Numbered from the stretch's first letter, positions 880 through 1,160 are shown. The stretch: DNA of 2,077 nt from Escherichia coli (GCF_003334405.1 NZ_QOWM01000039.1); one strand, 5' to 3'. Notes: generated by a model from the sequence alone, not told the origin. Made by a program: numbers and translations.

Positions 880-1160
880 GTTAGTTCTCCTGCATTGCGC
901 CCGTAGTTCGCTGACGCTCACACGCGCAGTACAGCGCCCCGTCCAGGGAAATCCTGGACGGCGTAAACTCGCTGGCGCGAGCGCTAACTGCGGCATTCTG
1001 CGGCGCAAATCAGCGTCATCGTTGTCTGCGAGTCAGTCGGGCTTAGCAGGGCGGGAAGGTGGTCGTGGTTCCGGTCGGTTACGGTAGCGGCGTTGCCGCG
1101 TTTCGGGGCGATGTGGCTCCTGTGCTGCCCTGGTATTTTCGTTCGCCCCTTCCATCCGCT
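880..1160. other. GC-rich, ORF-free structured block with multiple inverted repeats; candidate ssDNA promoter (Frpo-like) or ssi or structured RNA
   Basis: Sharp shift from AT-rich to GC-rich sequence. Perfect hairpin ccgtccagg-gaaat-cctggacgg at 939-961. Additional short inverted repeats (cgct-ggcgcg-agcg around 971-984) and direct repeat tgcggc...tgcggc (990-1004). Possible longer-range pairing between cagcgccccg (about 932-941) and cggggcgatg (1104-1113). The ORFs in the track here are Arg-rich and mutually overlapping, as expected for chance frames in GC-rich DNA. Confidence 0.3.

Follow-up and report, generated by a model that had tools for sequence, protein, structure and literature searches.

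The stretch of DNA studied here (the window, 2,077 nt in full length) originates from Escherichia coli (GCF_003334405.1, NZ_QOWM01000039.1) and bridges a pir-like replication initiator gene, located on the minus strand, and the gene for a J-domain protein. Its closest match is the 30.9-kb conjugative plasmid pDETEC36, which is 99.7% identical and carries a MOBP relaxase and an MPF_T system, and the nearest relatives of pDETEC36 are plasmids of 30–34 kb with the same backbone. Between the two genes lies a GC-rich non-coding block, which we identified as the distal domain of a repeated cassette (895–1309); the J-domain gene is the first gene served by this cassette. It is followed by small plus-strand genes with hicAB as the last of them and then by taxA/taxC, and everything from the J-domain gene through hicAB is oriented towards the origin of transfer (oriT). 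Just upstream of taxA/taxC the minus strand shows an inverted repeat and then TATCCTG/C, a nick motif of the MOBP type, and therefore the minus strand is the transferred strand (T strand) and the J-domain cluster is the leading region. The probable oriT can be placed at 30740–30790 (minus strand) of plasmid record L002, where the inverted repeat CAATCCGAT...ATCGGATTG is followed by TCTATCCTG/CA, and it is located upstream of an unlisted taxA-like open reading frame (ORF) that crosses the start of the record (about 30841 to 443).

The initial annotation of this DNA had described positions 880–1160 as a GC-rich, hairpin-dense unit without a credible ORF, containing a perfect 9-bp stem hairpin and several other inverted repeats, and this description could be confirmed. 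The GC fraction is 0.626 in 880–1160 compared to 0.318 in 500–760, 0.403 in 1161–1309 and 0.403 in the coding sequence (CDS) at 1310–1825, that is 63% GC against 32–40% in the AT-richer flanks. The hairpin CCGTCCAGG-GAAAT-CCTGGACGG was found exactly at 939–961 as the longest perfect hairpin of the block, a stem of at least 9 bp being present in 12 of 2000 dinucleotide shuffles (0.6%), and the further inverted repeats are those at 1154–1169, 1087–1099 and 1105–1111 with 1143–1149. Stops occur in all six frames of the window copy, no frame is open in every copy of the block and the indels that separate the copies are mostly of 1 or 4 nt. The extent of the unit had to be corrected: the GC block itself stands (about 895–1170), whereas the conserved unit is a ~415-nt repeat, 895–1309, which extends up to the ATG of the J-domain gene. 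We could show that 895–1309 is one copy of a modular repeated cassette made of a ~275-nt GC-rich domain, a sigma-70 promoter with a palindrome, a structured leader and a ribosome binding site (RBS), and its parts are listed in Table 1.

Table 1: Parts of the cassette and the gene that it precedes (positions in the window).
Feature	Position	Strand	Remarks
GC-rich distal domain	895..1170	-	CUP-type (see text); candidate single-strand initiation (G-site-like) signal; repeated copies
GC-domain sequence blocks			GGCTTAGCAGGG, CTTCGGGGCGAT, and CCTTCCAT + hairpin
Motif GGCGC(T/C)GTACTGCG(C/A)GT	922..938	-	directly 3' of hairpin A; (near-)invariant in 15/15 aligned copies including IncN CUPs
Hairpin A, 9-bp stem + 5-nt loop	939..961	-	compensatory conservation, intact on minus strand only
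CCCTGCTAAGCCC	1039..1051	-	candidate primase start, T of CTG opposite A1048
Hairpin GCGGC-N3-GCCGC	1087..1099	-	stem kept, loop variable in IncX, IncI2 and IncF copies; 86% of cells paired
Helix GGGGCGA/TCGCCCC	1105-1111 with 1143-1149	-	encloses ~31 nt; predicted on both strands; 82% of cells paired
Hairpin F, ATCCGC-TTAC-GCGGAT	1154..1169	.	CCTTCC before, A run after; proximal boundary block of the family
Sigma-70-type promoter TTGCAA-17-TATTAT	1219..1247	+	predicted; sole promoter-like site upstream of J-domain gene
Palindrome AATACGAC-N6-GTCGTATT	1224..1245	.	spans spacer and -10; candidate operator
Leader hairpins GGGG/CCCC (1261-1273) and GCCC/GGGC (1284-1295)	1261..1295	+	compensatory changes
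RBS AGGAG	1296-1300	+	after leader hairpins
J-domain protein gene	1310..1825	+	171-aa ORF; J domain at residues 7-57; WP_001025395.1

A second copy of 895–1308 is present 2 kb downstream on the same plasmid, with 91% identity and ending at the next start codon. Besides these two cassettes of the source plasmid there are three in the IncI2 plasmid pHNSHP45 and four in the leading region of one IncF plasmid, and other copies were found in an IncX4-containing cointegrate, an IncX3 plasmid and an Enterobacter IncX-like plasmid. Every copy is co-oriented with its downstream gene and ends at or near an ATG, all share one polarity relative to oriT, and in pHNSHP45 and the IncF plasmid each of them is located immediately upstream of a plus-strand gene directed towards oriT.

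The same architecture exists in IncN plasmids as the conserved upstream repeat (CUP) elements, which were reportedly described by Delver and Belogurov in 1997. In pKM101 the CUPs are conserved regions of >400 bp which precede leading-region operons, contain a promoter and an ArdK site in their proximal part and recombine with each other; the ArdK sites of IncN CUPs lie in the promoter-proximal part (PMC6289460, PMC5371602), and the long conserved part was described in a 2018 paper as 'not studied in detail'. Using nhmmer and a family hidden Markov model (HMM) that had been built without IncN sequences, repeats of the IncN plasmid R46 were matched upstream of ccgAI (E 6e-14), ccgD (2e-13), ardA (2e-12) and ardB (2e-8; reported range from 1e-8), with a fifth match just after the rep iterons, and a broad HMM including IncN sequences recovered the R46 repeats at up to E 4e-50. 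The matched sites are the large direct repeats of R46. Thus, as judged by sequence, the cassette is shown to be homologous to the CUP elements of pKM101/R46 and is newly placed on IncX, IncI2 and IncF backbones, while the literature contained no link that we could find between CUPs and IncX or IncI2 plasmids.

The proximal half of the cassette looks like an ordinary regulated promoter. Its hexamers are kept in 11 of the 12 copies of the IncX, IncI2 and IncF type and are degenerate in the IncX3 copy, and at the equivalent place of the alignment the IncN CUPs have TTGACT-17-GATAAT. In the palindrome that spans the spacer and the -10 hexamer four pairs change on both sides between the plasmid groups, giving ATACGAC, ATACATCT, ATAGGTCAG and ATACCGCA, and the pairing of both leader hairpins is likewise maintained by compensatory change between the groups. 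The palindrome is a likely operator, and the only repressor candidate is a helix-turn-helix (HTH) protein whose gene (L002 28259–28486) ends just ahead of the second cassette copy. Promoter-plus-leader modules also occur alone (L003 9866–9960, L007 2012–2109, L008 7025–7119) and therefore the GC domain is an optional upstream module that is not needed for promoter identity. At the junction of both halves hairpin F is paired in 94% of the cells with two compensatory pairs (variants ATCCGC, ATGCCC, ATGCGC and ATGCCGC) and is common to the IncN CUPs and all copies next to replication origins, which are described below.

In order to score the pairing of the individual hairpins we used an alignment of 15 sequences from seven lineages and a hand-specified structure. 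The stem of the 9-bp hairpin (hairpin A) is entirely different in sequence between lineages and its pairing is retained in all seven, with 99% of the cells paired and four of seven pairs changing on both sides. Read on the minus strand, its wobble cells are 11 G·T and no A·C, and therefore hairpin A pairs only on the transferred strand. Folding of the stem lineage by lineage gave -8.6 to -13.8 kcal/mol for the antisense strand and -4.7 to -12.7 kcal/mol for the sense strand. Leader hairpin 1 shows the opposite bias, with four A·C and no G·T cells on the antisense strand, so that it pairs only in the sense mRNA and serves as an internal control for the count in hairpin A. For the helix at 1105–1149 the copies vary too little for covariation to be informative. 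Taken together this shows that the long conserved part of the CUP family has been selected to fold on the transferred strand.

A function for this folded strand is suggested by the relatives of the second half of the GC domain. Positions 111–286 of the family model, which correspond to this half, match the region downstream of repA in IncI2 (E 4e-6), this region is 85% identical to its IncFII counterpart, and the divergent copy of L007 is ~79% identical over 115 nt to the origin-adjacent region of IncFII(K). IncI2, IncFII and IncFII(K) all have the order repA, DnaA box, ter site(s) and then the GC-domain homologue in the same polarity. For R1, a review puts the start of leading-strand synthesis on the far side of the two ter sites as seen from oriR, and ssiA is drawn beside oriR1 on the miniR1 map. 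On the minus strand of the cassettes CTGC(A/T)AAGCC is present in 12 of 12 copies and elsewhere in those plasmids only in the I2 origin copy. It is identical to the primer-start motif CTGCAAAGCC of phage G4 (G4 3996–4005), where the annotated primer ends at T3997, and the invariant motif at 922–938 includes TACTGC, which is present in the G4 start region as well. In the IncFII plasmid the equivalent CTG motif lies ~366 nt beyond the 188-bp oriR and after the ter sites. This agrees with R1, whose leading-strand synthesis we take to start at a primase 'G site' ~380–400 bp downstream of oriR. A Smith-Waterman alignment of the L007 copy ACTGCAAAGCCGAAAAGG with G4 ACTGCAAAGCCAAAAGG scored above 200 of 200 shuffles, and a BLAST search with the G4 origin against phages returned only relatives of at least 90% identity. 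From these homologies the conserved part of the CUPs is shown to be related, as far as sequence can tell, to an origin-associated priming region.

Some further copies next to origins deserve mention in their own right. In the IncI2 and IncFII plasmids (L003 2500–2590 and L004 1934–2005) a TTGCGA-17-TAAATT-like site, a long palindrome (AAAATCATATAGTAAATTACTATATGATTTT) and an unannotated ATG are present downstream of the origin-adjacent element. It may be that the copy at the origin is a complete cassette as well. In R46 the 37-bp iterons that lie downstream of the IncN rep gene are immediately followed by a CUP-like GC domain without promoter module (L011 32825–33090), and this domain is co-oriented with rep, mirroring the origin-adjacent IncFII and IncI2 copies. 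Three IncX-type plasmids have an inverted half copy of the GC domain between hicB and oriT/taxA (L002 30487–30601 on the minus strand, L007 6050–6165, L010 9206–9242). It is the half that resembles a G site and includes AGCCTGGCAGGG and CCTCCCAT plus hairpin, and its putative active strand is the non-transferred one. Possibly an alpha-type origin beside oriT has its leading-strand start at this half copy.

We propose that the GC domain is a single-strand initiation (ssi) site on the transferred strand which renders the adjacent ordinary promoter double-stranded, a reading that we place at about an even chance. The initial annotation had named an ssi primer site as one of its options, and the evidence favours it as a candidate. 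The GC domain would accordingly not be a promoter but a signal on the minus strand related to the primase-dependent G site (ssiA). The T strand would enter the recipient with its 5' end first, so that the gene enters first, then the promoter and then the GC domain. Once inside, the hairpins of the GC domain would resist SSB and offer the CTG start opposite A1048 to the host primase, and DNA synthesis in the plus direction would cross the promoter, ~170 nt away, and the operon, which would become double-stranded within a few hundred nucleotides. The ordinary promoter could then fire as long as the recipient is without repressor (zygotic induction), with a later shut-off possibly brought about by the cassette-linked HTH protein on the palindrome. 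With cassettes 1–2.5 kb apart the leading region would be converted piecewise. Annotated primase genes are absent from the IncX, IncI2 (first 50 kb), IncF and IncN plasmids that were examined, and this fits a reliance on host priming. As a wider and more tentative proposal, which we would rate somewhat below an even chance, CUP-type cassettes might represent a second, Frpo-independent route to early expression after conjugation in which a start site for the host primase on the T strand stands immediately before a repressible ordinary promoter and complementary-strand priming thereby licenses transcription operon by operon, and might be the same type of element as the leading-strand start beside the IncFII, IncI2 and IncN origins and possibly an IncX origin beside oriT.

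Several observations weigh against such a priming function. The strand bias of hairpin A rests largely on one stem position and may reflect few independent events. Fold energies of the whole block compared between sense and antisense strand showed no consistent asymmetry among 20 family members; they are thus uninformative, and hairpin-level analysis alone gave strand information. The similarity to G4 spans only ~10–18 nt, and Smith-Waterman alignments of the G4 origin with the IncFII, IncI2 and IncFII(K) origin regions and with the block of the window were not above shuffles. For the first half of the block no clear counterpart exists among the origin elements of the IncFII type, and since a palindrome and an ATG also come after the origin-adjacent copies of IncI2 and IncFII, these could be CUPs for the next gene and not a G site. 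Finally, the tentative identification of the origin-adjacent element with the mapped G site of R1/R100 rests on its position, this site reportedly having been located by Masai and Arai in 1989 and by Tanaka and coworkers in 1994.

Among the alternatives the strongest, which we still regard as unlikely, is that the block is a regulatory or architectural platform in double-stranded DNA (dsDNA) to which ArdR/ArdK-like plasmid regulators or nucleoid proteins bind, or that it serves mainly for recombination and shuffling, with the hairpins as by-products of palindromic binding sites. CUPs are indeed known as control elements of the ArdK/ArdR regulon, recombination between them is documented and the gene of the HTH protein ends immediately ahead of the second copy. 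However, the known ArdK sites are short and promoter-proximal, a ratio of 11 G·T to 0 A·C on one strand is unexpected for a dsDNA palindrome, and pairing of hairpin A is retained among lineages with wholly different stem sequences. The homologues moreover adjoin the origins of IncFII, IncFII(K), IncI2 and IncN in the polarity of the rep gene.

A structure that works in the single-stranded T strand could also have another job, as a PriA-type primosome site, a loading point for SSB or a helicase, or a roadblock by which the synthesis of the complementary strand is timed. The polarity and the strand specificity of the hairpin speak for this explanation just as well, a single-stranded DNA (ssDNA) structure of F is a roadblock resolved by UvrD, and a homologue of the ColE1-type primosome site is located 600 nt upstream in the window (259–317). 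We consider it decidedly unlikely, as the block is homologous to the R1-type start region of leading-strand synthesis and the shared motif is a CTG start of the primase type, while a roadblock upstream of a dsDNA-type promoter would delay its expression and not help it.

The structured non-coding RNA that had been suggested as another option is not favoured by our data. Covarying hairpins are present, and the internal copies lie between co-oriented genes where read-through transcription is possible, so that an antisense transcript through the block or an element in the 3' or 5' untranslated region of a neighbouring gene could be imagined. An Rfam scan (E up to 1) returned only a chance intron match, the minus strand has no promoter-like site directed at the block and the spacer in which one would sit is poorly conserved. 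Since the conserved hairpin pairs on the antisense strand, a sense read-through RNA is not the folded species, and we regard a structured RNA as improbable.

The principal suggestion for this block had been an Frpo-type single-strand promoter, in which the T strand folds, rebuilds -35 and -10 hexamers and allows RNA polymerase to transcribe the J-domain operon before the complementary strand exists. The setting agrees with it: the minus-strand oriT and the genes directed towards it confirm a leading region, copies of the element precede genes that use the T strand as their template, including the four copies in the F-type leading region, one hairpin is specific for the T strand, and in plasmids organised like F the strand of Frpo with ssi activity is complementary to the sense strand of the genes (minus). 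New classes of ssDNA promoters unrelated in sequence were also published in 2025, and the F leading region is known to carry class 1, 2 and 3 single-strand promoters (PMC12672017). For comparison, we applied the DNA folding parameters used for the block also to published Frpo and ssi sequences (Samuel et al. 2024, supplementary file 4). F ssiD and ColIb Frpo1–3 gave minimum free energies (MFE) of -94 to -102 kcal/mol, z scores of -8.6 to -10, pairs spanning 225–318 nt and a T-strand advantage of 10–17 kcal/mol, compared to -63 kcal/mol, a z score of -2.8, pairs spanning at most 152 nt and no T-strand advantage for the GC block of the window. Folding of the block is thus moderate, with an MFE of -63 to -68 kcal/mol and z scores of -1.7 to -2.8 depending on strand and boundaries, and these energies lie above the -75 kcal/mol screen used for pESBL. 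The long imperfect hairpin expected on folding each strand did not appear, the structure of the block consisting of local hairpins only. No pair of -35 and -10 hexamers was found on either strand in 880–1170, and the sole candidate (1219–1247) does not pair with a distal arm, belongs to the AT-rich module that is also found alone and has no complementary partner inside the unit. Similarity to Frpo or ssi sequences was equally absent: BLAST (word size 7) gave nothing below E 0.5, and nhmmer, run against the published lists, which include the class 1 and candidate sequences, and against the F leading region, no match below E 4. As the long hairpin, the internal hexamers and the similarity are all absent, the defining features of an Frpo-type promoter are missing here, and we consider this identity very improbable, although the leading-region setting and the T-strand hairpin stand.

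A small protein-coding gene over the block, as annotated over other copies, has a practically negligible chance, with stops in all six frames of the window copy, no conserved frame, indels of 1 or 4 nt and a 106-aa product without family match. The CDS features in question ('molecular chaperone DnaJ' or 'hypothetical protein'; L002 28488–28808, L008 6084–6287, L003 8917–9147) lie over GC-domain copies and are probably annotation artefacts, their frames being unconserved between copies.

Other parts of the window carry signals of their own. Adjoining the pir-like initiator gene there are direct repeats CCATAAAT(C/T)TGTCCC at 1–17 and 166–182, 165 nt apart, which look like iterons of a gamma-type origin, and the region 1–227 is common to few plasmids. 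About 60 nt at 259–317 (CTTCCTCGCTCACTAACTCGCTCCGCTCGGTCGTTCGACTGCGGCGAGCGG) show ~94% identity to >5000 small, mostly mobilizable ColE1-type plasmids. We take them to be the region of the pBR322/ColE1 primosome assembly (n') site, and from this match a second, different ssi-like signal lies between the iterons and the GC block. A direct repeat ACCGAG(A/G)A..TTCTCATGTTT at 502–522 and 626–646 (86% identical, 124 nt apart) sits inside the stretch of 25–32% GC that extends from the origin to the GC block. Downstream of the J-domain stop codon follow a hairpin CGGGGGC...GCCCCCG (1832–1850) and a second one at 1864–1898 with 14-nt arms CCCGTCTTTTGGGG/CCCAAAAAGACGGG, neither with a T run after it on the plus strand.

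The distribution of the family was also followed in genome contigs with the 17-nt minus-strand motif. Among the matches listed, two of 120 loci are true family members, L034 and the Pseudocitrobacter locus L083, and the remaining listed ones are chance matches in high-GC genomes. L034, a contig of 668 bp recorded under Haemophilus sputorum CCUG 13788, contains a full-length GC domain (258–549, 259 bits), and this copy could represent either contamination or a piece of a plasmid that occurs outside Enterobacterales.

In a new host the genes of the leading region are the plasmid functions that act first, and they have been proposed as a target against the spread of resistance. For F and IncI1 their early expression is explained by single-strand promoters. 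Plasmids of the IncX, IncI2 and IncN groups rank among the major carriers of mcr-1 and of carbapenemase genes, and to our knowledge no single-strand promoter has been described for them. A single family of repeated cassettes, the CUP type, is common to these plasmids, and the function proposed here would offer a concrete mechanism for early expression and complementary-strand synthesis in plasmids without annotated primase. If it is true, priming and zygotic induction are linked in IncX, IncI2, IncN and some IncF plasmids with mcr-1, NDM and other resistance genes. The CUP family itself was already known, and its link to priming signals of the origin type had been under-explored.

Compared to known systems, the cassette agrees in layout with the IncN CUPs, with which it shares a GC-rich domain of ~300 nt ending in CCTTCCAT, a hairpin and an A run, followed by a promoter with operator and then the gene, as well as the presence of multiple copies before co-oriented leading-region operons directed towards oriT. 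In contrast, the genes served here encode the J-domain protein, small unknown proteins and HicAB instead of ardA, ardB and ccg, the operator palindromes differ, and a segment of ~40 nt that separates the GCGGC hairpin from the CTG motif is replaced or absent in the IncN copies. With the G site and the G4 origin the second half shares CTGC(A/T)AAGCC and its homology to the element after oriR and ter in IncFII, IncFII(K) and IncI2, as well as hairpins in the template strand (A, which pairs on the minus strand only, and F). Plasmid G sites are further said, from the 1994 work of Tanaka and coworkers, to consist of conserved blocks with a variable middle part, as is the case here. Unlike a G site, the element is repeated, is located upstream of promoters and not at an origin, and has an additional first half with hairpin A, while the three-stem-loop arrangement of G4 is not evident. 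Finally, like Frpo and ssi1–3 (class 1) and the class 2–3 single-strand promoters of F, ColIb-P9 and pESBL, the cassettes are repeated non-coding leading-region elements of 300–400 nt that precede early genes and are tied to the T strand, but their GC block has no long hairpin, internal hexamers or sequence similarity to them and a far weaker z score. If the proposed priming function is right, they would also differ in what they recruit, namely primase in order to make a normal promoter double-stranded and not RNA polymerase to ssDNA.

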